This document shows positions 4,203 through 38,868 of a DNA stretch of 58,538 nucleotides, in pieces. How positions within the stretch are numbered: the stretch's first letter is position 1; every line of letters begins with the position of its first letter. The stretch is from NCBI GenBank assembly GCA_902799715.1, contig CADCBS010000001.1:1-58538 (forward strand), given 5' to 3'. The DNA comes from an uncultured bacterium (lineage in GTDB: Bacteria; Verrucomicrobiota; Kiritimatiellia; RFP12; UBA1067). The notes below the pieces were generated by a model that was given only the letters and a program-made list of their open reading frames with translations, was not told the DNA's origin and searched no databases. The position numbers and the translations under genes were made by a program.

Positions 4203-4409
4203 GCCCGCCGGCGAGCCGCCAGCGCCTATCCGCAAAACGCGCAGGCTTTCTTCTCCACGCCTTCTTCCGTGGATGGGGCAGCCTGCCCTCATACGCATAC
4301 TGTCGCGCCGCAGGAAAATCTCACGCGGCAGGCGCAATTGCAGCATGGTGCCGGTTTGCGTCGAAGCCGGCGGGGCATGGCCGCGCTTCGCCTTCCCCGA
4401 TCTTTGAAA

Positions 4410-4993
4410 TGAGATTGCGGTGCGTATGAAATCTGATTCGCCCCGCTCGTTGGCAAGGCGGCTTGTCCCAAAGCCACTGCAAACGGCTCGCGACCCCACA
4501 AACCTTGAAGTGAGATTACGGTGCGGATGAAATCCGATTCGCCCCGCTCGTTGGCAGGGCGGCTTGTCCCAAAGCCACTGCAAACGGCCCGCAACCCCCA
4601 CAAACCTTGAAGTGAGATTACGGTGCGTATGAAATCCGATTCGCCCCGCTCGTTGGCAGGCGGCTTGTCCCAAAGCCACTGCGAACGGCCCGCCAACCCC
4701 CAAACCTTGAAGTGAGATTACGGTGCGTATGAAATCAAGGTTGAAGGTTTTGACTTCGGACTTTGGACTTCAGACTTCAGAAATCGACCTCTGACTTTTG
4801 CCTTTCGTTTTACCCAGAAATAAATAAAAACAATCAAAGATAAACAAACTGCAAGCCATTACTGAAATGAGATTACGGTGCGGATGAAATCCTATTCGCC
4901 CCGCTCGTTGGCAGTGCGGCTTGTCCCAAAGCCACTGCAAACAGCCCGCCAACCCCACAAACCTTGAAGTGAGATTACGGTGCGTATGAAATC
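4410..4993 (+). repeat. Repeat array 1: six direct copies of the 24-nt core TGAGATTACGGTGCGTATGAAATC
   Basis: Copies start at 4410, 4511, 4613, 4713, 4868 and 4970 (periods 101, 102, 100, 155, 102). Four ~77-nt near-identical type-A modules and one 131-nt AT-rich module (4737-4867) lie between them. Confidence 0.9.
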
Positions 4994-5153
4994 AAGGTCA
5001 AGGCATAATGCGGGGGGGGGGCGGGGACCGGCGATTTCTACCGATAAATCTGCGGTCGACCGGCAATATGCGGCGGAAAATCAAAAACCGACGGCTACGG
5101 CCGGCGGCCAGAACTTGCGGTCGGGGAAAGGCCGGCAGCCGAAACCGCCGGCT

Positions 5154-5432
5154 TCACGCTTGAATCGCGTCCGGAACCCGGCGCCGCGAGAAGACGAAAT
5201 ACAGTGCGAGGTCGGTGCAGACCAGCGCAGTGTCGATGAAATACACCCAGACGACCCAGTCGTACGCGAAGACGAACTTGTGGACGATGCCGCAGGCATA
5301 GCCGGCGATCACGATAATCATGAACAGCGGGCTTTTGCCGGCCGTCTGGCGGGTCTTCAGGCTTTTCCAGATCGAAAACGGCCAGGAAAAGCCGAAGCAC
5401 GCCAGCATGGCGAACTCGAAGAAATGCTCCAT
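5154..5432 (-). CDS. Small 3-TM membrane protein, PQ-loop/SemiSWEET-like
   Basis: 92 aa with three hydrophobic segments. The WPFSIWKSLKTRQTAGKS loop resembles a PQ-loop signature. ATG checked at 5432. The function is a guess. Confidence 0.6.
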   Translation of the reverse strand: MEHFFEFAMLACFGFSWPFSIWKSLKTRQTAGKSPLFMIIVIAGYACGIVHKFVFAYDWVVWVYFIDTALVCTDLALYFVFSRRRVPDAIQA

Positions 5433-5474
5433 TCGTGCGGATGCCGCCTGCGGGCGCCGTTTGGCTGCGGGACG

Positions 5475-7130
5475 CTACTTCTTTTCCTCTTGCGCCTTTT
5501 CCTGCGCTTTGTCCTGCGGCTCTACCTTAGCCTTATCCTGCGCCTTTTCTTGCGCTGCAGCCTGCGGTTTGTCCTGCGGCTTTTCCTGCGCCACGACCTT
5601 AGCCTTTTCCTGCGCCTTTTCCCTGAGCTTGCTCTTGATCACGTTGTTGCGCAAGCCCCAGCCTGCGGCGCCGAGAGCCTTGTAGAGCGAAATCAGGTTC
5701 ATCGTTATCTGTCCGCGCGATATCACGAGCGCTTCTTCGAGGGACAGCTGCGAACGCTGGGCGTCGAGGACGTTGTTGAAGTCCGCCAGTCCGTTGGAGT
5801 AGAGGTCCTGCGCTATGGAGGTGGCCTCCTTTGCGGCCTTGACGGCCTCTTCGAGCGACTGGTTGCGGTGGTACTGGCGCGTATATGCGGCGTATGCGTT
5901 GCGGGTTTCCGCCACGGCGGTGCGCACCGCGAGCTCGTACCCGTACGCGGCTTCTTTCACCTTGTGCTCGGCGATCTTCACTTTCGCGCGGATGCTGCCG
6001 CCCTGGAAGATCGGCCAGCTCACGGACGGGCCGATGGACGCGAGAAGCGAGCTGCGTTTGAAGAAGTCGGAGAACGACGCCGATTCCAGCCCGAGCGTCC
6101 CGTTGATGAAAAGCCTGGGGTAGTACATGGACTTCGCGACGCCTACGGACGCGACGGCCGACTTGAGGTTCGCCTCCGCCTGTTTTACGTCCGGGCGGTT
6201 GCGAATCCAGTCGAACGGGATTTCCGCAAGTTTCTGCGGCTCCAGCTTCCATTCGCGGTCGGGGACCGGGAGGAGTGTGTCATGGAGCGTGCCGGGCATG
6301 GCGCCGGCCAGGATCTCGAGCCCGTTCACTATAGACTCCTCGTCCGCCAGAAGGGCGGGGATCTGCGCGCGCGTCTGTTCAAGGATGTATTTCGACTGGC
6401 TTACGGCCAGCTTGTCGCCGATGCCGGAGCTGAAGCGCTTGAGCAGCAGATCGTGGGTCTCCTGCTGGAGCTTGAGGTTCGCCCGCGCGACCTTGAGGCG
6501 CTGCTGCACGGTGCGCAGGTTCACGTACTGCGCGCCGATTTCGGCGGCGAGCGACACCCACGTGTTGTCCTCGCTCCACACGGCGGCCTGGACCTGCGCC
6601 TCGGCGGACTCGACGCCGCGGCGGACGCCGCCGAAGATGTCTATTTCCCACGTGGCGTCGAATCCGGCCTGGAAATGGTCGGTATGGAGGTGTCGCCCGG
6701 CGCCGGTGGGCGTGGTCCTGCCGTATTCGGCGATTCCCGCGCCGGCGCCGCCGGAAAGCTGCGGGAAGAGGCCGGAGGCCGCCCCCAGAAGCTGCCAGCG
6801 CGCCTGCGAGAGGCGGTGCTGCGCCATCAGAAGCGAAAGGTTGTTCGTCACCGCGCGGTCGACAAGTCCGGTCAGGACGGGATCGTCGAACGCCTTCCAC
6901 CAGTCGAGCAGGGACTCGCGCGTGATGGTCTTGCGGACGTCGGCGTCGCCTTCGGCGGGCTTGAGTTCGCCGGTTTCGGTGCGGTTTGTCGTCGGCATCC
7001 CGGCGTCGGGCGCGGGCGCGGCGGGATCGGCGGATTCGGGGCGCTCCCAGTCGGGCCCCACCGACAGGCAGCCGGCGGCGGCCGCGGCGAGCGCCGCGGC
7101 GAGAAGGTATGCTTTGTTCTTCGTTTGCAT
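5475..7130 (-). CDS. RND efflux outer-membrane lipoprotein (NodT/OMF family)
   Basis: Lipobox AAAAGC near the N-terminus. Two OEP-type repeats with typical LDWWKAFDDP and LYSNGLADFNNVLDAQR motifs. Unusual K/Q/E-rich C-terminal tail. Confidence 0.9.
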   Translation of the reverse strand: MQTKNKAYLLAAALAAAAAGCLSVGPDWERPESADPAAPAPDAGMPTTNRTETGELKPAEGDADVRKTITRESLLDWWKAFDDPVLTGLVDRAVTNNLSLLMAQHRLSQARWQLLGAASGLFPQLSGGAGAGIAEYGRTTPTGAGRHLHTDHFQAGFDATWEIDIFGGVRRGVESAEAQVQAAVWSEDNTWVSLAAEIGAQYVNLRTVQQRLKVARANLKLQQETHDLLLKRFSSGIGDKLAVSQSKYILEQTRAQIPALLADEESIVNGLEILAGAMPGTLHDTLLPVPDREWKLEPQKLAEIPFDWIRNRPDVKQAEANLKSAVASVGVAKSMYYPRLFINGTLGLESASFSDFFKRSSLLASIGPSVSWPIFQGGSIRAKVKIAEHKVKEAAYGYELAVRTAVAETRNAYAAYTRQYHRNQSLEEAVKAAKEATSIAQDLYSNGLADFNNVLDAQRSQLSLEEALVISRGQITMNLISLYKALGAAGWGLRNNVIKSKLREKAQEKAKVVAQEKPQDKPQAAAQEKAQDKAKVEPQDKAQEKAQEEKK

Positions 7131-7167
7131 CTGCGTTTCCTTTTGTAAGGTGAGTTTCCGGCGTGCG

Positions 7168-10100
7168 TCACCCGGCGCGCTCCTTGAGCCTGCGCCTGCG
7201 GGCCGATGCGGCCGCCGTGTACGCGAACATGCGCTTGATCTTTTCGCGGATCGTCTGGAAGAGCGCGTACAGGCCTGGCACCAGCACGACGCCGAACGCC
7301 ACGGAGAAGAGCATGCCCCAGAACTCCGTAACGCCTATCGCGTTGCGCGACGCGGCGCCCGCGCCCGTGGCGACCACCATGGGCCACGTGCCGAGAAGCG
7401 TGGTGAGCGCGGTCATCAGCACGGCGCGCAGGCGTTCGCCGCCCGCGGCGCCTGCGGCGTCCGCTATCGAATAGCCCTCGTTCTCGCGCTTGTCCTTGGC
7501 GAACTCCACGATGAGGATCGCGTTCTTCGACGCCAGGCCCACGAGCAGCACGAGGCCGAGCTGGGCGTACACGGAAAGCGACAGGCCGTACAGCTTCAGG
7601 CCCACGAGCGCGCCGTAGGTGGCCACGAAGATGGACAGCATCACCGGCAGCGGGATCGTCCACGACTCGTACTGCGCCACGAGGAACAGGTAGCCGAACA
7701 GGATGGCGAGGCCGATCAGCGGCGCGGCGGAGCCGGCGTTGCGCTGCTCCTGGAACGTTATGCCGGACCACTCGAAGCCGTAGCCGGCGGGCAGGTTGTC
7801 GCCGAGGATGCGGCGCACTTCGTCCATCACCATGCCGGAGGCCACGCCCGGCATGGGCATCACCTTCAGGCCGGCTGCCGGGAACTGCTGGTAGCGCGAC
7901 ATCGTGCGCGGGCCGGCTTCGCGCTCGATCGTGGCGAGCGAGCCGACCGGCACCATCGAGCCGGTCTCGGAGCGGACGTACAGGTTCAGTACGTCCTCGG
8001 GCGTGGCGCGTCCCGACCAGTCGGCCTGCACCGTCACACGGTTCACCTGCGTGCCCAGGTTCACGTCGTTCACGTAGCGCGAGCCGAGATAGTTCTGCAG
8101 CGTGGCGTACGCAGTGGCGATCGGCACGCGGAACATCTCCGCCTTGTCGCGGTCCACGTCCAGGCGCAGGTGGGGGGTGTTGGCCGTGTAGCCGGAGTAG
8201 GCCATCATGATCAGCGGCGAGGCGTTGAGCTTGGCCAGCATCTTGTTCTTCACCGTGTCCAGCTCTATCGGGTCCACCTTCTCCTTGGACTGTATGCGCA
8301 CGTCGATCGCGTTGTCGGCGCCGAGGCCGGGGATGGCCGGCGGCACGAACACCTTGAACGACGCTTCGGGGATGCCGTCGAGCATTTTCTGCACTTTGGG
8401 GATGAGCGCCTGGACGTGCTGGTCGGGGCGGGAGCGCTCCTTCCAGTCCTTGAGGTCGGCGATGAGCATGCCCTCGTTCTCGCCGCGGCCGCCGACCAGC
8501 GACATGCCGTTGATGGACAGCACGGAGTTGACCTCGTTCGTGAGCGAGAGGATCGCCTGCACGGCGCGGCGCGTGACGTCCTGCGACCTGGCGGACGTGG
8601 TGCCCTCGGGCAGTTCCACGGACGCGAACAGGCATCGCTGGTCTTCGTCGGGCAGGAAGGACGTCGGCGTGGACTTGAACGCCTGGACGGTCAGCAGCAC
8701 GGCAACGGCCAGCAGCAGCCCGGCGAGGACGATGCGGCGTGCGAGCCCGCGCGCCACGACCACGAACAGGCTCTTGAACTTGTTTATGCCGGTGTTGAAC
8801 CAGGCGAGCGGCCCGTGCCTGTACGGGCGCGCCTCGTGCAGCAGCAGAGAGCACAGCGCGGGGGCGAGCGTGAGCGCGCACAGGGTGGAGAAGCAGACCG
8901 CCGCCGAAAGCGTGACCGAGAACTGCTGGTATATGCGGCCGGTGATGCCCGTCATGAAGCCGACCGGCACGAATATGCCCAGAAGCACCAGCGTGGTGGC
9001 GATGACCGCGCCCGTCACGTCGCTCATGGCCTGGATGGTGGCCTCCTTCGCGTTCAGCCCGCGCGTCTCGATGAGGAACTGCACGCGCTCGACCACCACG
9101 ATGCAGTCGTCCACCACCACGCCGATCGCGAGCACGAGGCCGAACAGCGTGAGGATGTTGATCGAATACCCCAGCGCGGCCATCAGGATGAACGTGGAGC
9201 ACAGCGACACCGGGATCGTTATCAGCGGTATCAGCGTGGCGCGCCAGTCCTGCAGGAACAGGTAGCACACGAGCACCACCAGGCCGAACGTTATGAACAG
9301 CGTTATCTTGATTTCGTCGATGCAGTGGCGCACGTAGTCCGTGGCGTCGTACGGGATGGTGGCCACCATGTCGTCCGGGAACGACTTCTCGAGCTCGGCC
9401 ATCGCCTTGCGCACCGCGTCCATGGCCTTGATGGCGTTGGCGCCGGGCTTCTGCTGGAGCGCTATCGACACGGTGTTGCCGCCGTTGAGCTGGCCGGAGA
9501 ACATGTAGTTCTGCTCGCCGATCTCGATGCGCGCCACGTCCTTGAGCTTCACGAGGCCGCCGTTCGCGTCGCGCCGCACTATGATCTCCTCGAATTCGGC
9601 CGGCGTCATCAGGCGGCCCTTGGACACCAGCGAATACGTGAACGCGCCGTGCTTCTGCGTGGGCGACGCGCCCACCGCGCCGAGCGAGGCCTGGATGTTC
9701 TGCTTCGATATGGCGGAGATGACCTCTTCGGAGTTCATCGACTGCGCCGCCATGCGCTGCGGATCGAGCCACACGCGCACGGCGAGCTTCGGCCCGTACA
9801 CCTGCACGTCGCCCACGCCGTCCACGCGCAGCAGGACCGGCTGGATGTTGTTGTAGATGTAGTTGGATATCTCCAGGCGCGAGTGCGTGCCCTTCGGCGA
9901 GCGGATCGCGTAGAAGCCCAGGAAGTCCGTGGACTGCGCGCGCACGCGCCCGCCCAGCTGCTTCACCTCCTGCGGCAGCTTCGCCTCGGCCTGCGTCAGG
10001 CGGTTCTGCACCTTCACGAGGTCCATGTCGCGGTCGGAGCCGACCTCGAACGACACCGTGAGCGAGTACGTGCCGTCGTCGCCGGAGTCGCTCGTCATGT

Positions 10101-10371
10101 AGATCATGTCGTCCACGCCGTTGACTTCGTCCTCCACCGGCGTCGCGATCGTGTTCATCACTTCGCGGGCGTTCGCGCCCGGATACGTGTACGTCACGCG
10201 GATTTCCGGCGGCGTGAGCTGCGGGTACTGCGCTATCGGCAGCGACAGCATCGCCATCATGCCCGCGATGGACAGCACCACGGCTATGACCATCGCGAAG
10301 CGGGGACGCTCCACGAACGTGCGCGAGAACGTCTTTATCTTGTCTATAGATTCGCGGATCTTGAGTTTCAT
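7168..10371 (-). CDS. RND (HAE1/AcrB-type) efflux permease
   Basis: 1067 aa. N-terminus [39 protein letters not shown]. 12-TM architecture with two large loops. Confidence 0.95.
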
Positions 10372-10410
10372 TTCATCGGCCCGTGCGTGAGTATGGCGGT
10401 TGCCGCGGCG

Positions 10411-11661
10411 TCACTTGTCGGACGGGCGGACGTAGCCGGGATGCGTGTCTTCGTTGGGCGTGGCCTCCGCAAGGCGGACCTTCTTGCCGGGGCCGAGCTT
10501 GCCTACGCCGGAGGTGACGACCCGCTCGCCGGCCTTCACGCCCTCCAGCACCGGCACCCAGCCTTCGTGCATGTCGAGCGTCTTCACCGCGCGCGGCTCG
10601 ACCGTCATGTCGTCCTTCAGCACGTACACCTGCACGCCGCCGCCTATCGCGTCGATTATCGCCGACTGCGGCACGCACGTGTATTCCGGCGGCTTCGAGT
10701 AGTCGGTCAGCAGCGTCACGTAGCTGTTGGGCACGAGCAGGCGCTCCGGGTTGGGGAAGGACAGGCGCATCGAAATCGTCGCCGTCTCGGCGGACATCGC
10801 GTTGTCGTCGAAGTCCCATTTGCCCTGCCCCGCGTAGTCGGAGCCGTCGGGCAGCTTCAGGCGCAGGCGGAATCCGCCGTCGCCGCCGCCGCCGGAGCGG
10901 GCCTTGCGCCACGCGATGTACGAGCGGTCCGTCATCGGGAACGTCACGCGGATGGGGTCGATCTGCACGATGCGCGCGAGCGCGCCCTTCGCCGGCGAAA
11001 CGTAGTCGCCCACGTAGGCGTTCGACTTGCCGATCTGCCCCGAAATCGGCGCGTACACCTTGGCCTTCTTCAGGTCGTAGCGCGCCACAACCAGGTTGGC
11101 TTCGGCCTGCAGCACGGCGGCCTTCGCGGAGTCGGCCTTCGCTTCGGCGTTGTCGCGCTCGGAATCAGGTATCACGCCCGCCTCCGCCTTGCGAGTGCGT
11201 TCGAGATACCTGTCCGCGCGGCGCTGCTCGGCCTTCGCCGCCTCGAGGTCCGCTTCGCGCTGCCTCACCACGGCCTGGTAGCGCTCGTCGTCGAGCTCGT
11301 ACAGCAGCTCGCCGGCCTTCACGGTGGAGCCTTCGGAGAAGTGCAGCTTCTTTATGTAGCCGTCAACCTGCGGCAGGAGGTCCACCTCCTGCATGGCCTC
11401 GGCGTGGGCCACGAACCGCAGCGGCTTGTTGTACGGCCTGTTGGTGGCGCACGTCACCGCCACGGAAATGTCCTGCGCCGGCATCTGCGGCGGCGTCATC
11501 TTCTGCTGCGGCATCAGGCCGCGCCCTATCCATCCGGCCGCCACCCCGGCTCCGGCCGTAAGCAGGGTGCCTATCAGGGCCGCCGCCGCGGCCTTGCCGC
11601 CGCCTTTCTTCTCCTCGCGCGCCTGCGGCGCGCCCTGTGTCGTCTGTTCTTCTCCGCTCAT
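10411..11661 (-). CDS. RND efflux periplasmic adaptor (MFP)
   Basis: Lipoyl/hairpin/beta-barrel pattern (VKAGELLYELDDERYQ..., APISGQIG). Start set to ATG 11661 (MSGEEQ), which overlaps the TetR stop as ATGA. The track ORF starts upstream, inside tetR. Confidence 0.9.
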   Translation of the reverse strand: MSGEEQTTQGAPQAREEKKGGGKAAAAALIGTLLTAGAGVAAGWIGRGLMPQQKMTPPQMPAQDISVAVTCATNRPYNKPLRFVAHAEAMQEVDLLPQVDGYIKKLHFSEGSTVKAGELLYELDDERYQAVVRQREADLEAAKAEQRRADRYLERTRKAEAGVIPDSERDNAEAKADSAKAAVLQAEANLVVARYDLKKAKVYAPISGQIGKSNAYVGDYVSPAKGALARIVQIDPIRVTFPMTDRSYIAWRKARSGGGGDGGFRLRLKLPDGSDYAGQGKWDFDDNAMSAETATISMRLSFPNPERLLVPNSYVTLLTDYSKPPEYTCVPQSAIIDAIGGGVQVYVLKDDMTVEPRAVKTLDMHEGWVPVLEGVKAGERVVTSGVGKLGPGKKVRLAEATPNEDTHPGYVRPSDK

Positions 11662-12326
11662 TTCGCTTTTCCCTTCTTTCTTCCGGAAGCCGTATCCGCA
11701 GACGGCCCGGGAGCCTTCTCCCAGCCGCCGCGCCACATCGCGAAGGCGTCGATCACCGCCTCGCGCACTTCACCGTCCAGAAACCCTCCGATCGCCGCCC
11801 CCACGAGCGCCGACCACGAAAGCACCATGAACCCCGCGGTCTTGGCGATGTCCACCCCGTCGCGCAGCCGCCCCGCGGCCTTCTCCTTCTCCAGCGCGCC
11901 GTGCAGGAGCGCGACCGGCCCGCCCTCGCGCTGCGACTTCACCACGCGCGCGCGGATTTCCGCCATCGACGACCCGCTCCACCTTATCTGCGAATGCAAC
12001 AGCCTGTACATGCTCCGCGACCTGGGGTCGGACACGATCCGCACGGCCTGCTCGGCCATTGTCTCCGCCGCGCCCGCCATGTCGGGCGACTCCGGGCCTT
12101 TCACCATCGCGCGCTCGAAACGCGCGTGCACGATCTTGACCACCTCTATCAGCAGCGACTGCTTGTCCGGGAAGTGCCAGTACACCGCGCCTTTCGTCAT
12201 GTCCATCTTGCGCGCGATGTCCTCGAAGGTCGTCTTCTCGTACCCGCGTTCGGCGAAAAGCGACAGCGCGGAGGCGATTATCCGCCTTCGCGTCTTTTCC
12301 GCGTCCTGTTGCGTCCTTCTTGCCAT
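11658..12326 (-). CDS. TetR/AcrR-family repressor of the efflux operon
   Basis: HTH ASALSLFAERGYEKTTFEDIARKMDMTKGAVYWHFPDK. Start set to ATG 12326 (MARRTQQD); the track start at 12365 is a TTG. Confidence 0.9.
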   Translation of the reverse strand: MARRTQQDAEKTRRRIIASALSLFAERGYEKTTFEDIARKMDMTKGAVYWHFPDKQSLLIEVVKIVHARFERAMVKGPESPDMAGAAETMAEQAVRIVSDPRSRSMYRLLHSQIRWSGSSMAEIRARVVKSQREGGPVALLHGALEKEKAAGRLRDGVDIAKTAGFMVLSWSALVGAAIGGFLDGEVREAVIDAFAMWRGGWEKAPGPSADTASGRKKGKAK

Positions 12327-12379
12327 GCGTGTGTCCGGTCCTATTCCGCCGGCAGAGCCTGCCAAGCGGAAGCGCGCGA

Positions 12380-12409
12380 AGTATACATACCTTTCGGTAG
12401 GTATGTCAA
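12380..12409 (-). promoter_or_regulatory. tetR-efflux promoter with an embedded palindromic operator
   Basis: Minus strand reads TTGACA-18 nt-TATACT. The spacer contains the perfect inverted repeat ACATACCT-N6-AGGTATGT (12385-12406). Confidence 0.55.
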
Positions 12410-12640
12410 GCCCGAATCCGCGCCGCGCTGCGCAGGGGTCCGGCGCGGCAGGGCCGGTGCAAAAAAAACGGGCGGCACACCCGTGCCGTCCGCCGTACTG
12501 CGGTCAACGCCAGTATAAGCCGCAGCAAGTTGTTGCCTTCACTATAGCGAAAACCGTGCCAGCCCGCGGAAAGCGCCTTTTTCTGGCGTTTGCCTGCGGC
12601 AAATGCGACATTTTTGCAGGAAATCGCCAGAAATGTACGA

Positions 12641-12673
12641 CAAAAACGGAGCACGGCGCCGGTTCGGCATGCT
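12641..12673 (-). terminator. Candidate intrinsic terminator of the feo operon
   Basis: Directly after the stop at 12674 the minus strand reads AGCATGCCG-aaccgg-CGCCGTGCT, followed by CCGTTTTTG. Confidence 0.5.
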
Positions 12674-12826
12674 TCAGGCTTTTTTGGATTTGCGGCTTTT
12701 TTCGCATGTGCAATTGCGGCAGCACCCGCCGCATTCGCAGGGCGCACCCTTTTTCAGGTTGCGCCACACTGCAAATGCGGCGAGCCCCACAACCGCCGCA
12801 AGAACCGCGACAGAGCCGACGCTCAC
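12674..12826 (-). CDS. FeoB-associated Cys-rich small membrane protein
   Basis: 50 codons: one TM (SVGSVAVLAAVVGLAAFAVW), then NLKKGAPCECGGCCRNCTCEKSRKSKKA. GTG start overlaps the feoB stop as GTGA. It is the real tail of track ORF 12674..14491. Confidence 0.75.
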   Translation of the reverse strand: MSVGSVAVLAAVVGLAAFAVWRNLKKGAPCECGGCCRNCTCEKSRKSKKA

Positions 12827-15800
12827 AGCGCCGGCTCCTTCCCCGCCTTGGCGGCGGGGCGGAAGACCATCCACAGGCAGAAGGCGTCGAGCGCGAGCGC
12901 CGCCGCCGTCCACAGGCCGAATCCCCCGCCCGCGGCCAGCACGCCTATCCTGTACGCGGACAGCGCCAGCACGTAGCCCGTGAACAGCTGGAAGCCGACG
13001 GCGAACCAGCCCCACGCCTTCGACCCCATTTCGCGGAACGTGACGGCTATCGCCACCATGCACGGCGGGATGAACAGATTGAAGATCATGAACGACAGCG
13101 CCGCGAGTTTCGGGAAATCGCTGAACGACGCGAAGAGCCACTTGATCTGCGCGCCCGTGGCGCCGCCAGGCATGTTGGACGCCACCAGCCCCAGCGTGGC
13201 CGTCGCCTGCTCCTTTGCGATTTCGGCGGAAACCGACGCCGCCGCGCCCTGCCACGATCCGAACCCGAGCGGTTCGAGCATCCAGGCGAGCCATCCGCCC
13301 GCGACGGCCAGCATCGACCGGTCGATGCCCTCTTCGCCGACATGCGCGAACGAGAAGTCGTAGTTCATTATGAACCACAGGAACACGCACGCCGGGAAGA
13401 TTATCAGGCCGGCCTTCATGATGTAGCCTTTCACGCGGATCCACGTGTGCCGCCAGATGCCCGCCGCGGTGGGCATGTGGTACGCGGGAAGCTCCATCAC
13501 GAACGGGGCCGCCTCGCCGGCGAACGCCCTGGACTTCTTGAGCGCTACGCCGCCCATCACGATCACCGCTATGCCGATCACGTCCATCAGCGCGGCCACG
13601 TACCATTGTCCGCGGAAGAACAGCGCCGCGAACATCGCGATTATCACGGTCTTCGCGCCGCAGGGTATGAACGTGGCCAGCATGACCGTCATGCGGTGGT
13701 CGCGCTCGTTTTCGATCGTGCGCGCCGCCATCACCGCCGGCACGCCGCAGCCTTTGCCCACGATCATCGGGATGAACGACTTGCCGGACAGACCGAATTT
13801 GCGGAACAGGCGGTCCATTATGAACGCCACGCGCGCCATGTAGCCGCAGTCCTCGAGGAACGCCAGGAACAGGAACACCACGGATATCACGGGCACGAAA
13901 CCGAGCACCGTCGCGACGCCGCCCCATGCGCCGTCGAGGACCAGCGACTTCACTTTGTCGCCCGTGCCGACGGCGTCCAGCGCTTCGCCGATAAGCGTCT
14001 TCAGGCCGGGGATGAACACGCCGAAGCGCGAGGGGTCTACCTCCGGGACTTCCTTCGACGCCTTGTAGGCGGCGTAGTCGCATTCCCACGACATTTCGTG
14101 GCCGCAGCATCCGCAGTCGCCGGGCATCGGGCCTTCCTGCGCGGCGACGCCGGCGGCGACGGTTTCGTCGAATATCTCGAACCCGCTTTCTTCGAACAGC
14201 GACTTGGGGATGTAGGTCTTGCCTTCCTTCTTCGCCGCTTCGCGGGCTTCGCCGGACGCCTTGCGCCACTCCTTCTCCGCCTCCCTGTTGAACCCGCGCA
14301 GCTTGGTTTCGTACGCGCCGCCGCCGTTTTTCGCGTCGTATGCCTTGATGTAGGCGGCGCGCCACTTGGCGACCTTCTCGCAATGTTCGCAGGCTTCCTT
14401 GGGCTCTCCTTCCTCGCCGGTGCAGTCGCCGCACGAATGGCCGGGGTCGGCGGCTTTGGCCATGAGACACTCCACCGGCGCATGCTCGCAAGGCTCCGTC
14501 TCGACAAGGTGCGTTTCGGGGTCGATCGAGGCGACGCCCGTCACGGGTTCGCCCGTCTCTTCGTCGTCGTCGAGTTTGACTTCCGCCTTGACGCCGGCGG
14601 CCAGCGCCTCGTCGAGCACTGCGAACTCCGCGGCCTCGAACCTGTCGCCGTCCTTCCCGGGCTTGAATTCATTTTCGGCCTTTTCGTTCCAGGCCGCAAG
14701 GGCCGTTTCGTACGCTTTTGCTCCGGCTTCGGTCAGGTTGCCGTCCTTGTCCTTTTCGCCGTATTTTTCGTTGTAGGCCTCCTTGTAGGCGCTTTCCCAC
14801 GCCTCGATGTTCTTTTCGTGCGGGGCGTACGCCTCCTTGGCCTCGTCGTATCCCTTCCCGGCGTAGAATGCGCACGACGCGCAGTCGCAGTTCTTCGCGT
14901 CGCCTTTGCAGGCGCATCCCGGCTCGCCGCACTTGAACGTATGCGTTGTGAACGGCAGGTGCCACCCGTCCTCGCCGAGGAAGCTGTCGTTCGCCCAGTC
15001 GGTCAGGATCGTTCCGGGGCCGTTTTCGGCCACGGCCACCCACCACATGGCGCAGAGCGCCAGCACGAACAGGGGAAGCGCCAGTATGCGGTTCGTCACG
15101 AACTTGTCGATCTTGTCGGAGAGCGTGGTCTTGTTCTTGCGGGCCTGCGTGCGCGTCACCGCCTTCGACATCAGATTCTGGATGAACTCGTAGCGCTGGT
15201 TGGTGATGATGGATTCGGCGTCGTCGTCGAGTTCCTTTTCGCAGTCGCGGATGTGGGCTTCGATGTGCTTCATCTCGCCCACCCCTATTCCGAGGTCTTT
15301 TATCACCTCGCGGTCGCGCTCGAATATCTTTATCGCGAACCAGCGTATCGACCTGGCCGGAACCTTTCCCTGGATCGATTCTTCGATGTGCGCGATGGCG
15401 TGCTCCACGGAACCGGAGAACACGTGCGGCGACTCGCCCTTGCGGGCTTTCTTGGCCAGGCGCGCCGCCAGCTGCGCGGCCTCGGCCCCGCCTTCCTTCT
15501 TCAGCGCGCTGATGCCCGTCACCTCGCAGTTCAGCGCCTTGCCGATTTTCGCGAAATCTATCTTGTCGCCGTTCTTCTTCACCACGTCCATCATGTTCAC
15601 GGCCATCACCATCGGGATGCCCAGCTCCGCGAGCTGCGTGGACAGGTACAGGTTCCGCTCGATGTTCGTGCCGTCGACAATGTTCAGGATCGCGTCGGGG
15701 TTCTCTTCGACCAGGAACTTGCGGGACACCTTCTCTTCGAGCGAATACGGCGAAAGCGAGTATATGCCCGGCAGGTCCTGGATCGTCACGTCCTTGTCGC

Positions 15801-15939
15801 CGGCGAGCAGGCCGTCCTTCTTCTCCACGGTCACGCCGGGCCAGTTGCCGACATACTGGTTCGAGCCCGTAAGCGCGTTGAACAGAGTCGTCTTGCCGGA
15901 ATTGGGGTTGCCGGCCAGCGCTATCTTTATTTTTGCCAT
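12823..15939 (-). CDS. feoB: Ferrous iron transporter FeoB with a ~320-aa Cys-rich insertion after TM1
   Basis: G-domain GNPNSGKTTLFNALTG...DLPGIYSL...NMMD. Gate motifs LEDCGYMARVAFIMDRLFRKFGLSGKSFIPMIVGKGCGVPAVMAARTIE. 1038 aa versus the usual ~700-800. Confidence 0.95.
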   Translation of the reverse strand: MAKIKIALAGNPNSGKTTLFNALTGSNQYVGNWPGVTVEKKDGLLAGDKDVTIQDLPGIYSLSPYSLEEKVSRKFLVEENPDAILNIVDGTNIERNLYLSTQLAELGIPMVMAVNMMDVVKKNGDKIDFAKIGKALNCEVTGISALKKEGGAEAAQLAARLAKKARKGESPHVFSGSVEHAIAHIEESIQGKVPARSIRWFAIKIFERDREVIKDLGIGVGEMKHIEAHIRDCEKELDDDAESIITNQRYEFIQNLMSKAVTRTQARKNKTTLSDKIDKFVTNRILALPLFVLALCAMWWVAVAENGPGTILTDWANDSFLGEDGWHLPFTTHTFKCGEPGCACKGDAKNCDCASCAFYAGKGYDEAKEAYAPHEKNIEAWESAYKEAYNEKYGEKDKDGNLTEAGAKAYETALAAWNEKAENEFKPGKDGDRFEAAEFAVLDEALAAGVKAEVKLDDDEETGEPVTGVASIDPETHLVETEPCEHAPVECLMAKAADPGHSCGDCTGEEGEPKEACEHCEKVAKWRAAYIKAYDAKNGGGAYETKLRGFNREAEKEWRKASGEAREAAKKEGKTYIPKSLFEESGFEIFDETVAAGVAAQEGPMPGDCGCCGHEMSWECDYAAYKASKEVPEVDPSRFGVFIPGLKTLIGEALDAVGTGDKVKSLVLDGAWGGVATVLGFVPVISVVFLFLAFLEDCGYMARVAFIMDRLFRKFGLSGKSFIPMIVGKGCGVPAVMAARTIENERDHRMTVMLATFIPCGAKTVIIAMFAALFFRGQWYVAALMDVIGIAVIVMGGVALKKSRAFAGEAAPFVMELPAYHMPTAAGIWRHTWIRVKGYIMKAGLIIFPACVFLWFIMNYDFSFAHVGEEGIDRSMLAVAGGWLAWMLEPLGFGSWQGAAASVSAEIAKEQATATLGLVASNMPGGATGAQIKWLFASFSDFPKLAALSFMIFNLFIPPCMVAIAVTFREMGSKAWGWFAVGFQLFTGYVLALSAYRIGVLAAGGGFGLWTAAALALDAFCLWMVFRPAAKAGKEPAL

Positions 15940-15959
15940 TTCTCCGTCTCCCGGGCGCG

Positions 15960-16178
15960 TCAGACGATTTCCACCATTGCAGCCTCGCTCTTGCGGATCG
16001 ACAGCTCGTAGCCGCGCACCGTAAGCTCGATGGGATCTCCGAGCGGCGCGATTTTCCGCACCGCCACCTCCACGCCTTTCGTCAGGCCCATGTCCATGAT
16101 CCGGCGCTTCACCGCGCCTTCGCCGTTCAGGCGCGCGACCTTTGCGCGCGCGCCCGGTTTCAGTTGATCGAGTGTCAT
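15960..16178 (-). CDS. feoA: FeoA-family protein (copy 2)
   Basis: MTLDQLKPGARAKVARLNGEGAVKRRIMDMGLTKGVEVAVRKIAPLGDPIELTVRGYELSIRKSEAAMVEIV. ATG checked at 16178. The track ORF has a spurious extension. Confidence 0.9.
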   Translation of the reverse strand: MTLDQLKPGARAKVARLNGEGAVKRRIMDMGLTKGVEVAVRKIAPLGDPIELTVRGYELSIRKSEAAMVEIV

Positions 16179-16210
16179 TTTGTTTCTCCTTCCATAAATG
16201 CAGGCACGGT

Positions 16211-16432
16211 TCAAGGCAGCGGTTCCACCATCACGTGGCGCGTCACGTCGCCGTTCACGGCGATGCGGCTGTCGTGTATCCCGATTATCATGTTCCCGCC
16301 GGAAATCTGGACCACCGTGACAACTGCGCCCGGCACGAAGCCAAGCGCCCCAAGGTGCTTCTTCACTGTGTCGCTGCCAGTCAAGGCCATGACCCTGGCC
16401 TTGCAGCGCAACCCTATCATCGACAACGGCAT
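16211..16432 (-). CDS. feoA: FeoA-family protein (copy 1)
   Basis: MPLSMIGLRCKARVMALTGSDTVKKHLGALGFVPGAVVTVVQ...IGIHDSRIAVNGDVTRHVMV. ATG 16432 has a GGAG 7 nt upstream. The track start at 16438 is a TTG. Confidence 0.85.
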   Translation of the reverse strand: MPLSMIGLRCKARVMALTGSDTVKKHLGALGFVPGAVVTVVQISGGNMIIGIHDSRIAVNGDVTRHVMVEPLP

Positions 16433-16501
16433 ACGCAATCTCCACGCCCCCAGGCCGCGCGACGCCGCGCAGATTTACACCTCGGGGCTAAATCTTCGTC
16501 A

Positions 16502-16530
16502 AGTCTAACATTGTTTGTCTTGGTTGTCAA
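16502..16530 (-). promoter_or_regulatory. Candidate sigma70 promoter of the feo operon
   Basis: Minus strand reads TTGACA-17 nt-TAGACT, about 60-70 nt upstream of the feoA start. Confidence 0.5.
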
Positions 16531-16635
16531 GGCCGCCGCGCGTTTTTTTGGGAAATATGCCGTCGCCCGCCGTCCAGCGCGCTCCGCAAGGCCGCCCCCC
16601 CCATTTTTGCGCATCACGCCCCCTTCACCCGGAAA

Positions 16636-17193
16636 TGAGATTACGGTTCGTATGAAATCCTGTTCCCCTTGCGCAGTGGCGACCACCCCTTCAAAAACCT
16701 GAATGAGATTACGGTGCGTATGAAATCAAATTGCGAGTGTTTCGACTCTGGACATCCGACATTCGACATCCGGCATCATGGGGAGCGAATTCCGTTTGAT
16801 GGGGAGAGTTTGGGTTTCAACCATCGTCTAACAATGGAATCGCCCGCTTCTTCCCAAAATGAGATTACGGTGCGTATGAAATCCTGTTTCCCTTGCGCAG
16901 TGGCGTCCACCCCTTCAAAAACCTGAATGAGATTTCGGTTCGTATGAATTTGATTGGCCGTGGAGAAATCGGCCGTGCAGAAGTGCAGAACGTGTGGAAA
17001 ACCGGAAGGGCGCATGCCCTCATGCGCCGCAGCCCCTCCACCCAGAAATGAGATTACGGTTCGTATGAATTTGATTGGCCGTGGAGAAATCGGCCGTACA
17101 GAAGTGCAGAACGTGTGGAAAACCGGGAGGGCGCGTGTCCTCGTGCGCCGCAGCCCCTCCACCCAGAAATGAGATTACGGTTCGTATGAAAAT
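16636..17193 (+). repeat. Repeat array 2: six direct copies of the same 24-nt core (TGAGATTACGGTKCGTATGAAATC)
   Basis: Copies start at 16636, 16704, 16860, 16928, 17049 and 17170 (periods 68, 156, 68, 121, 121). Modules: B (44 nt, twice), one 132-nt module (16728-16859), D (97 nt, twice). Confidence 0.9.
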
Positions 17194-17306
17194 GACAAGC
17201 CGCCCTGCCGGTACGCCACGATACGGCAAGAAACAACCGGCGGCGGACGATAAGGGGCGCATCGCAGGAATTTGGTGCGCGCCGCCCTTGCCGTCGCGGC
17301 GGCCGC

Positions 17307-17334
17307 TTGTATTTGGCGCGGCGTTTGGTAAAAT
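17307..17334 (+). promoter_or_regulatory. Candidate promoter giving a leaderless or near-leaderless folate-ligase mRNA
   Basis: TTGTAT-16 nt-(TGG)TAAAAT, an extended -10. The -10 ends 7 nt before ATG 17342. Confidence 0.45.
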
Positions 17335-17341
17335 ACGCAAC

Positions 17342-18016
17342 ATGAAAACCGTTCTGGGGGCAACCGGATATCGCGTACGCGGAAATCGAATGGAAAACAG
17401 TTTGACAGGACTCGGAAAGTCCGGGCTGAGGCGCGAGATGAAGGCGCGGCGGAGGGGCCTTGCGGCCGCCGGGAAGGCCGCCGCCGATGCCGTCGTCTGC
17501 GGAAAGCTGACGGCGCGGAACGTCGCCGGCGGGACGGGCGGCGCGCCAGATTCCGGCGGAGCGCTCGCCGTGTATCTTGCCACGCCGGACGAAATCGACA
17601 TCGACCCCTACATCGAGCGCATGCTTCGGGCGGGCGTGGAAACGGTCGCACCGCGCTGGAACGGCGAGACGTACGAGCTCGCGAAATTGAAGGGCCTGGA
17701 CGGGAAGAATCTCCGGACCGGACCGATGGGGATCCGCGAGCCGGCCGACGCCGACATCGTGGAGCCGGAAGACGTCCATGCGTGGATCGTCCCCGGCCTT
17801 GCGTTTACGCGGAGCGGCAAGCGGCTCGGCTATGGCGGCGGATGGTACGACCGGTTCCTCGCCTCCGCGCCGGAAGGCACCGTGAAGATCGGCGTGGCCT
17901 ATTCGTTCCAGATTGTCGACGACCTTCCCGCGGAGCCGCACGACATCACGCTTGACGGCATAGTAGACGACTCGCCAGACCATGATTCGAAAGGAGACGC
18001 CAGATGGCAGACTTGA
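17342..18016 (+). CDS. 5-formyltetrahydrofolate cyclo-ligase
   Basis: Motifs LAVYLATPDEIDIDP and WIVPGLAFTRSGKRLGYGGGWYDRFL. The track ORF starts inside the repeat array. ATG 17342 preferred; 17390 is an alternative. Confidence 0.85.
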   Translation: MKTVLGATGYRVRGNRMENSLTGLGKSGLRREMKARRRGLAAAGKAAADAVVCGKLTARNVAGGTGGAPDSGGALAVYLATPDEIDIDPYIERMLRAGVETVAPRWNGETYELAKLKGLDGKNLRTGPMGIREPADADIVEPEDVHAWIVPGLAFTRSGKRLGYGGGWYDRFLASAPEGTVKIGVAYSFQIVDDLPAEPHDITLDGIVDDSPDHDSKGDARWQT

Positions 18017-38388: not shown

Positions 38389-38868
38389 TCAGCGGCGGTG
38401 CCGGCCGCGGAACCCGCCGCGGTAGCCGCCGCGGAACGCGGGCGGAGGCGGGCGGTGATAGTGGCGCGGCCCGTAGTATATCGGACGCGGAGCCACCACC
38501 GTGGTGCCGTAGCCGTAGGGATAATAGCCTGTCGAATACGTTTCGACCACCGGCGCGGTCACGACCGGAGTCGTGACGACCGGCGTCGTGACCACAGGCG
38601 TGGACACGACGGGCGTGGACACCACCGGAGTGGATACCACCGGCGTGGACACGACGGGAGTCGTCACTACGGGCGCGGGATTCACTACCACGGTGTCCGG
38701 GCCGTTCACCGCGCGGTCTATCAGGCCCAGCGTGGCTCCGACGGTGTGCAGTATCCCGCCGGCCAGGAAGAGTCCGTCCCTGTGATGGCCGTGGTGGCGG
38801 TGTCCGGCGAACATTGGCAGAGCCATGGCGGCCGTGCAGAACAGAACGATCACTTTCTTTTTGTTCAT
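38389..38868 (-). CDS. Secreted low-complexity protein: His-rich N-terminus, (T/S)TPVV x9, Tyr/Gly/Arg-rich C-terminus
   Basis: Signal peptide MNKKKVIVLFCTAAMALPMFA, then GHRHHGHHRDG, nine pentapeptide repeats, and YYPYGYG...FRGGYRGGFRGRHRR. SD AAGGAGAAGAA lies upstream. Confidence 0.7.
   Translation of the reverse strand: MNKKKVIVLFCTAAMALPMFAGHRHHGHHRDGLFLAGGILHTVGATLGLIDRAVNGPDTVVVNPAPVVTTPVVSTPVVSTPVVSTPVVSTPVVTTPVVTTPVVTAPVVETYSTGYYPYGYGTTVVAPRPIYYGPRHYHRPPPPAFRGGYRGGFRGRHRR
38545..38676 (-). repeat. 15-bp tandem coding repeat (about 9 units) encoding (T/S)TPVV
   Basis: The plus strand shows acgaccggMgtcgtg / accaccggMgtggaY-type units in series. Confidence 0.8.

Follow-up and report, generated by a model that had tools for sequence, protein, structure and literature searches.

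Among the mosaic repeats described in bacteria, the closest counterparts to the element treated here are Neisseria's intergenic mosaic elements (NIMEs), in which a 20-bp core known as dRS3, with terminal inverted repeats, flanks repeat families of 50-150 bp. NIME arrays keep a syntenic position while their number of units varies by strain, an IS110-like recombinase integrates at their core, variable loci lie nearby, and the arrays have been described as unique to Neisseria (PMC1797815). Repetitive extragenic palindromes (REPs), which are assembled with other motifs into bacterial interspersed mosaic elements (BIMEs), provide a second point of reference, and insertion sequences (IS) of the IS1111/IS110 type are known to target REPs as well as attC sites and transposon ends (PMC11187229, PMC12288879). 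The way in which mosaic arrays of the NIME and BIME type arise has been a matter of debate for decades. The present analysis deals with a comparable system in an uncultured bacterium of the Kiritimatiellia (RFP12, UBA1067; assembly GCA_902799715.1, contig CADCBS010000001.1), where the whole stretch analysed, positions 1 to 58,538 and referred to below as the window, contains two arrays of a 24-nucleotide (nt) core. Array 2 (16636-17193) lies between divergent feo and folate-ligase genes, and array 1 lies to its left.

The explanation favoured here, with a probability of roughly 0.62, is that both arrays are intergenic mosaic repeat arrays of the NIME/BIME kind, that is, selfish or recombinational DNA whose core is linked to a protein named MAP, and that they are not a switch for feo. 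A sequence-only reading of the same DNA had taken the shared design of the two arrays as a sign of a dedicated mechanism or function rather than of chance tandem duplication. This interpretation is partly supported: many species share the core with hardly a base changed, in the midst of unrelated flanks, which speaks for a dedicated repeat family and against chance duplication, but not for a feo-specific function.

As in NIMEs, the modules between the cores form repeat families (termed A, B, D and U), are intergenic and are clustered in arrays, the arrays have a fixed position and a unit number that varies between strains, and an element of the IS110 superfamily has inserted at the core, with variable gene content alongside. 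For the terminal inverted repeats the picture is mixed: the core of some other species carries them (folding z-scores of -3.2 and -3.5), and in the window copies the outer repeat has decayed (z of about 0). Unlike in NIMEs, the core measures 24-29 nt and is unrelated in sequence to dRS3 (ATTCCCNNNNNNNNGGGAAT, or ATTCCC-N8-GGGAAT), the host belongs to the Kiritimatiellae, in the Planctomycetes-Verrucomicrobia-Chlamydiae group, instead of to Neisseria, the cores here are all direct, and the core also brackets, and lies inside, the MAP gene. We know of no NIME counterpart for such a core-bracketed protein gene. The array system is best described as a functional analogue of NIMEs and not as a member of the family.

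The core in the window and across the lineage

Array 2 is composed of six copies of TGAGATTACGGTKCGTATGAA, all on the forward strand (Table 1), with start-to-start spacings of 68, 156, 68, 121 and 121 nt. Subtraction of the 24-nt core (R) leaves modules of 44 (B), 132 (U), 44 (B), 97 (D) and 97 nt (D), so that the array reads R-B-R-U-R-B-R-D-R-D-R; the two B modules are 96% identical and the two D modules 95%. Copies 1, 4, 5 and 6 carry a T at core position 13, copies 4 and 5 finish in GAATTT at the 3' end and copy 6 in GAAAAT, and a C-rich tract followed by GAAR precedes every core. In array 1 the cores start at 4410, 4511, 4613, 4713, 4868 and 4970, and across both arrays the modules fall into four families: A (77-79 nt, four copies), B (44 nt, two), D (97 nt, two) and U (132 nt, two loosely related copies). 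In Tandem Repeats Finder, D+R is recovered with a repeat length of 121 nt and array 1 with one of 101 nt. On re-check, the coordinates, the G13T change in four copies, the 3' drift, the layout, the module lengths and the C-rich tract with GAAR ahead of each core all match the sequence-only reading; the common copy number of six, to which that reading had attached meaning, is coincidental, as other strains have five cores in array 2 and four in array 1. With up to three mismatches allowed, the core matches 12 times in the 58.5 kb, six times in each array and nowhere else, and 100 dinucleotide shuffles of the window gave no match at all, which sets the chance expectation at zero.

The genome scan, made over one genome per species with GAGATTNCGGTNCGNATGAA as the query, returned at least 96 stretches. 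The extended core consensus, of 24-29 nt, is (G)AAAATGAGATTACGGTKCGKATGAAATC. Copies of the true family come from at least 14 genomes, whose labels are Kiritimatiellia/Kiritimatiellae, rumen "uncultured bacterium" RUG bins or Verrucomicrobia. Copies lie between unrelated genes in these Kiritimatiellae-type genomes, and the flanks change from copy to copy while the core hardly changes at all. Among the matches listed, the metagenome-assembled genome (MAG) JAZQGX01 alone contributes 23 of the 96, many of them 100-450 nt from a contig end, as is typical of a dispersed repeat in a short-read assembly. Singleton matches in unrelated phyla were set aside as chance coding matches reading E-I-x-V-R-M-K; by calculation, about 70 matches are expected by chance (17 specified bases, 596 Gb). 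A phage origin of the core was rejected, as the viral contigs of IMG/VR gave 0 matches, and a literature search on repeats and intergenic elements of the Kiritimatiellae brought up no description of this core. The sequence-only reading, which had leaned towards a regulatory device of the feo/folate-ligase gap, had itself named a core that proved to be a generic interspersed repeat as an observation that would speak against it, and a generic interspersed repeat of the lineage is what the core is.

Besides its intergenic copies, the core is found in frame within genes. In three species it lies in TrpF, where it reads ..DFIRTVISF.. or ..RDYGAYE.., and in a DUF3034 protein it lies in the signal peptide and reads KFIRTVISF. 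The positions of such in-frame copies are about 4225 in contig L054, 2965 and 3279 in L066, 2071 in L082 and 3859 in L014, TrpF (PRAI) containing the core in up to three places in L066. Rickettsia palindromic elements (RPEs) of 100-150 bp, described in 2000 by Ogata et al., reportedly insert in frame into genes in a similar way. The likeness to RPEs extends to TrpF, the DUF3034 signal peptide and a linker of MAP, to which the core adds the peptide FIRTVISF or RDYGAYE; unlike an RPE, the core element is 24-30 nt long and is not strongly palindromic. In some other species, the full core is an imperfect palindrome with ATGAGAT/ATCTCAT (7 nt) placed around TACG/CGTA, whereas in the window the outer repeat has decayed and the cores fold no better than their shuffles. 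Inverted core pairs 67-113 nt apart were observed in contigs L055, L070 and L017, and their flanks are likewise inverted, not direct.

Several identities were considered for the core and rejected. A by-eye comparison with sigma-70, sigma-54 and extracytoplasmic function-type promoters, with the Fur box and with the dif/XerC arm (GGTGCGCATAA against GGTGCGTATGA) revealed no fit in spacing or consensus. Plasmid-type iterons are 17-22-bp direct repeats with helical spacing next to a rep gene, a gene that is absent here, where the spacings measure 68-156 nt. A miniature inverted-repeat transposable element was discarded, as the window cores are direct only and the inverted pairs of other species lack direct flanks. 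Integron cassette arrays resemble the present ones in their one-orientation layout of sites and cassettes, in whole units that differ by strain and in the insertion of IS1111-attC elements into the recombination site. They differ in that the modules here are non-coding and of 44-132 nt, that neither IntI nor the attC boxes R''/L''/L'/R' are present, that the 24-nt core has no GTTRRRY and no significant folding, that no integrase lies beside either array, and that most changes look like slippage or deletion.

The regular repeat-spacer pattern in a single orientation could also be taken for a non-coding RNA locus, in the form of tandem small-RNA genes or of an array akin to clustered regularly interspaced short palindromic repeats (CRISPR), with the cores as processing sites. 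The D1 and D2 modules (16951-17169) show two A-to-G differences, located on both arms of a GGCGCATG/CATGCGCC hairpin that stays paired through G-U on the forward strand only, and a 330-nt module of JAZQGX01 with a promoter-like site, hairpins and a T-run, described below, ends in a core. Two changes between D1 and D2 are, however, too few to support an RNA structure. A CRISPR has a leader, cas genes and unique spacers of one length; the modules here are themselves repeated and fall into four length classes (44, 77-79, 97 and 132 nt), and the neighbours are feo, folate-ligase, resistance-nodulation-division (RND) efflux and small Zn-ribbon protein genes, with no cas among the genes flanking the arrays. 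Apart from a tRNA, the window contains no Rfam match at gathering score, and neither the array nor the JAZQGX01 module has one at E <=1. Cores and modules fold no better than shuffled sequences (z from -1.55 to +1.07), and scans detect no promoter or terminator inside the array. An RNA function of the array is thus highly improbable, and a CRISPR was rejected.

Strain variation and gene context

The strains were compared at array 2 through contigs of other metagenome samples that encode the identical NUDIX protein. Six cores are present in the window and in L100 and L101, and five in L097 and L099, which have lost one 121-nt D+R unit, as well as in L098, where a 72-nt deletion at a CGG microhomology extends from inside core 4 into D1. 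A further haplotype, in L102, reads ...U-R-U-R-A'-R-B-R::IS-D-R and includes an A module of the array 1 type and an extra U. At array 1, the window carries six cores, L213 carries four (R-A-R-U-R-A-R) and L198 at least three. An array is present in every contig that reaches either site; the position of the arrays is stable within the species, and their content is not. Most of the strain differences that can be resolved are ordinary slippage or deletion, the exception being the extra A-type module of L102.

The insertion sequence of L102 recurs in L103 and L104, as a single event seen in three samples, in the form of a 1.55-kb element that splits one core (L102 363-1914) and whose product is a DEDD_Tnp_IS110/Transposase_20 protein. 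When parsed by the rules for IS1111, with sub-terminal inverted repeats, terminal extensions of 7 nt and 3 nt and a non-coding region downstream of tnp (PMC11187229), its structure is AAGTAAA-ATGAGAGGCT...AGCCTCTCAT-AGA. It is inserted exactly at TGAGATT^ACGGTGCGTATGAA (TGAGATT^ACGGTGCG, i.e. TGAGATT^ACGG) and without duplication. The non-coding region holds AATGAGAT, CCGTAAGT and ATCTCA, which are 6-8-nt matches to the target or the junction and can be regarded as suggestive only, given that 8-mers can match by chance. In another species, a degraded relative of the element (L070 3921-4610) is located next to an inverted core pair and directly adjoins AAAATGGGTAAATT, which resembles the left half of a core.

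Gene content also varies close to array 1. A hotspot of variable cassettes lies at about position 4221 of the window, 190 nt from the array and just upstream of the -35 box of a gene encoding 171 amino acids (aa). The hotspot is empty in the window, holds 2.3 kb in L213 (5230-7550; a 161-aa protein and a 429-aa leucine-rich-repeat protein) and 5.7 kb in L214 (310-5986; an FGE-sulfatase, ParE/Phd and a 636-aa Fn3 protein), and the first 90 nt or so are common to both inserts. Contigs L200-L203 were considered as strains without array 1, which was ruled out by these insertions of 2.3-5.7 kb between the array and the 171-aa gene. In L204, about 67 nt around the degenerate inverted core-like sequence at 4291-4331 (Table 1) are tandemly duplicated.

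As the G+C content of the window is high (57-71% in 1-kb windows, about 65% overall), long open reading frames (ORFs) are unreliable, and genes were chosen by their third-position G+C together with Pfam. A 3294-aa ORF between the arrays (6127-16011, forward strand) was accordingly dismissed as a spurious high-G+C artefact, antisense to reverse-strand efflux and feo genes that are rich in third-position G+C. Array 1 sits between the terminator of an RND-efflux operon (5105-5087, reverse strand) and the promoter of the 171-aa gene (4202-4174, reverse strand), whose small product is Zn-ribbon-like. To the left of array 2, on the reverse strand, are feoA (16211-16438), a second feoA (15960-16208) and feoB (12823-15939); to its right, on the forward strand, are a 5-formyltetrahydrofolate cyclo-ligase gene (start at 17342, 17390 or 17438, end at 18016) and then the NUDIX gene, so that the divergent feo/folate-ligase gap is as it had been described. 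Both arrays occupy space that is neither promoter nor terminator. They bracket, in direct orientation, a 13-kb segment (4220-17300) that encodes a 92-aa protein, TolC, AcrB, a membrane-fusion protein, TetR, FeoB and two FeoA proteins. Two short-period tandem repeats unrelated to the core are found at 5491-5622 and 38545-38675 (12/36 nt; 15/30/45 nt), the first of which, judged by position, falls within the TolC-family gene (5475-7130, reverse strand), towards its 3' end.

Table 1. Coordinates of the array features and adjacent promoters in the window
Feature	Position	Strand	Basis or comparison
Core R1 (T at position 13)	16636..16659	+	sequence, core scan
Module B1, 44 nt	16660..16703	+	96% identical to B2
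Core R2	16704..16727	+	core scan
Module U, 132 nt, single copy in array 2; GACATYC/GACTTC-type sub-repeats as in array 1 U	16728..16859	+	
Core R3	16860..16883	+	core scan
Module B2, 44 nt	16884..16927	+	sequence comparison
Core R4, variant GATTTCGG; counterpart core holds the IS1111-type insertion in other strains	16928..16951	+	
Module D1, 97 nt; D1+R5 form the 121-nt tandem unit absent from L097 and L099	16952..17048	+	
Core R5	17049..17072	+	core scan
Module D2, 97 nt	17073..17169	+	repeat finding, module comparison
Core R6, 3' end GAAAAT	17170..17193	+	core scan
Array 1, six cores, R-A-R-A-R-A-R-U-R-A-R; A 77-79 nt, U 132 nt	4410..4993	+	
Degenerate split core-like sequence, inverted, TCATACGCA ... 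AATCTCA, 19 nt replacing CCGT; 80 nt left of array 1	4291..4331	-	
feo promoter match TTGACA-17-TAGACT; 105 nt from nearest core (R1)	16502..16530	-	promoter scan
Likely folate-ligase promoter TTGTAT-16-TAAAAT with TG extension; 113 nt past R6	17307..17334	+	by eye; under scan threshold

The location of array 2 in a gap between divergent promoters lends itself to the explanation that the array is a cis-regulatory operator or enhancer whose cores bind a factor controlling both the feo and the folate-ligase promoters. The core is bipartite, with conserved arms and a variable centre, as expected of a protein-binding site, and in the MAP unit described below an inverted core abuts a -35 box. This explanation is nevertheless doubtful in the extreme. 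In many species, copies of this core separate genes that have nothing in common, and some are even found within coding sequence; solo cores show no bias of orientation towards their neighbouring genes (7 against 6, with crude gene calls). At this locus, the array overlaps neither promoter, the two -35 boxes being 105 and 113 nt away from their nearest cores, and core number and modules vary between strains whose flanking genes are identical, down to a strain with a 1.5-kb IS in the array. Moreover, three sister species with a folate ligase 74-76% identical to that of the window have no core within 3.5 kb of the gene. In place of feo, they carry defence or toxin-antitoxin genes upstream of the folate ligase (AEP-TOTE helicase/PIN, Wadjet JetC/JetD and HipA), and array 2 is therefore a synteny breakpoint at the species level.

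The MAP unit

In contigs L080, L081, L076, L022 and L017, an ORF of 320-450 aa, named MAP, is associated with two cores, one of them inverted and upstream and the other forward and within the last codons, where it reads ..W-R-A-K-Y-E-N-E-I-T-x-R-M-K-S-R-W-W... The upstream core ends 3-4 nt ahead of the -35 box of a MAP promoter, TTGCCT-17-TATCAT. In the 62 loci collected from the initial ones, from exact-protein look-ups and from a metagenome scan, the unit measures about 1.2 kb, the inverted upstream core is found at 55 loci and the C-terminal forward core at 61, including homologs that are 46-59% identical to the query. Longer homologs possess an additional forward core, located 260-390 nt ahead of the end and read in another frame ((K)RDYGAYEI), which opens a hypervariable in-frame insertion. 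Among 52 distinct MAP genes, third-codon conservation reaches 0.89 inside the core compared with 0.77 and 0.72 in the neighbouring codons, and conservation within the core is lowest at the central GTG, at the same position as the G13T change of the window. This third-codon excess, taken together with the variable centre, therefore indicates a constraint on DNA or RNA that acts on two arms and leaves the centre free.

MAP homologs number more than 1300, mostly on contigs of 1-5 kb, and an exhaustive HMMER search yields at least 559 clusters at 50% identity. Several observations speak for mobility of the unit. At least 3-4 contigs of JAZQGX01 end inside MAP and have different outer flanks, and in two pairs of contigs (L114 and L118, L108 and L149) the neighbour is shared while the unit is oriented the other way round, the homology of the first pair running exactly from the outer edge of the upstream core to 9 nt past the stop codon. 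The inverted core pairs that are 67-113 nt apart retain a remnant of the MAP promoter. Inversion of the unit by recombination between its own cores was rejected: the downstream core is not at the edge of the gene but some 63 nt within it, a frame that leaves through the upstream core runs at once into a stop, and the opposite-orientation pairs share one flank only.

Two further observations were made around the MAP genes. A non-coding module of about 330 nt is present in at least seven copies in JAZQGX01 (L083 120-470, L006, L016, L026, L028, L040 and L072), directly after the MAP stop codon in two of them; it contains a promoter-like TTGCAC-17-TATCAA, two perfect hairpins and a T-run, has a core at its end and has no Rfam match. 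In turn, a distant homolog with 41% identity (L116) is without the core and is followed, up to the end of the contig, by a tandem array of another repeat of 23-25 nt, GGACGGGCATGCGACCACGGCGC (1420-1568).

No match to MAP was found in Pfam (with three proteins and then with 112 family members), NCBIfam, PADLOC, PHROGs or the sequences of the PDB, whether a single sequence or a profile was used. The family shares the conserved core RRPxYY...NPCPT...RFGS..DLECYVDNSL..GRxGGxKxWL..MRYKAxAxKLRQ, and an AlphaFold2 model built on 112 sequences predicts, with confidence, an almost all-alpha protein (pLDDT 89.3, pTM 0.79). A Foldseek comparison of the model with the PDB and BFVD gave no match (best E-values of 0.53 and 0.54, TM-score <=0.2). 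With all sequence, profile and structure searches negative, the idea that MAP is one of the known transposases, recombinases, defence proteins or phage proteins was rejected and, according to the model, it is not recognisable as a DDE, HUH, tyrosine or serine recombinase.

These results bear on a possible REP/BIME system mobilised by a REP-associated tyrosine transposase (RAYT), a Y1 HUH enzyme. Like REPs, the core is a short, abundant and extragenic repeat that occurs in mosaics with other motifs and is a target of IS110/IS1111 elements, and the full palindromes of some species (ATGAGAT..ATCTCAT with TACG..CGTA) fold with z-scores of -3.2 and -3.5. In contrast to REPs and BIMEs, the window copies have no significant palindrome and do not alternate (12 of 12 cores are on the forward strand), the core is conserved across many species whereas REPs are species-specific, and MAP, the only gene found to be consistently flanked by the core, has neither a Pfam match to Y1_Tnp or any other family nor a structural match to a solved protein; no core-flanked HUH transposase was found in the contigs compared. 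A RAYT-driven origin is the least probable of the explanations weighed here.

A domesticated host factor would be a different kind of partner for the core. If MAP were, for example, a nucleoid-organising or partition-type protein, the core would be its chromosomal site and the arrays would be nucleation sites instead of mobile relics. The core is extremely conserved even though MAP has diverged to 46% identity, one subgroup of MAP retains its neighbours, and the site lies inside the gene of its own protein in the manner of parS and parB; in Bacillus subtilis, parS lies inside parB/spo0J. On the other hand, MAP is multi-copy in one MAG and occupies rearranged positions in others, the number of cores differs greatly between species, cores are found in frame in genes, and the size of the arrays is not constrained. 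A host-factor site is considered unlikely.

Origin of the arrays and significance

Under the favoured explanation, of mosaic arrays made of selfish or recombinational DNA, the core would be recognised by a DNA-binding or recombination factor acting in trans. This factor would most likely be MAP, the best candidate, or else another conserved factor. Solo cores and core-plus-module units would be non-autonomous derivatives of the MAP unit, and a head-to-tail array may build up as new units land beside, or recombine with, the cores already in place. Later changes would be caused by ordinary slippage, unequal crossing-over and microhomology deletion, and any effect on feo or the folate ligase would be incidental, through added spacing or as a recombination hotspot.

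Several points weigh against this explanation. The predicted structure of MAP displays no recognisable catalytic fold, and no MAP homolog is encoded in the window or in a further 19 kb of the contig, which amounts to 78 kb of this species. All 12 cores of the window point in the same direction, unlike the inverted pairs that bracket MAP. The MAP subgroup that keeps its upstream neighbour implies that the gene is stably placed there, and in one species MAP has the same context in eight contigs. With the exception of the extra modules of L102, the instability common to repeats in general suffices to account for the strain differences at array 2, and no dedicated enzyme is needed. Finally, comparisons of the window modules with other species and with MAP, as possible decayed pieces of it, revealed no similarity other than over 27 nt of U1.

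A bolder and tentative idea, rather unlikely on present evidence, is that MAP could be a sequence-specific DNA recombinase or transposition protein of a new kind, with an all-alpha fold that has no precedent; it would use the 24-nt core as its site and move both its own 1.2-kb unit and, in trans, short core-module cassettes. If so, it would have built integron- or NIME-like arrays and left in-frame core insertions in genes, and this would be the first mosaic-array system of the kind with an identified and experimentally tractable protein.

For the annotation of rumen Kiritimatiellae, the arrays matter in that they break metagenome assemblies, and they should not be annotated as feo regulatory elements. 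For mosaic arrays in general, they provide an independent, sequence-unrelated system in a distant phylum that shares with NIMEs the architecture, the strain dynamics and the use as a landing site by the IS110 superfamily. Unlike for NIMEs, a candidate protein partner, MAP, is at hand, which makes the factor that recognises the core directly testable.

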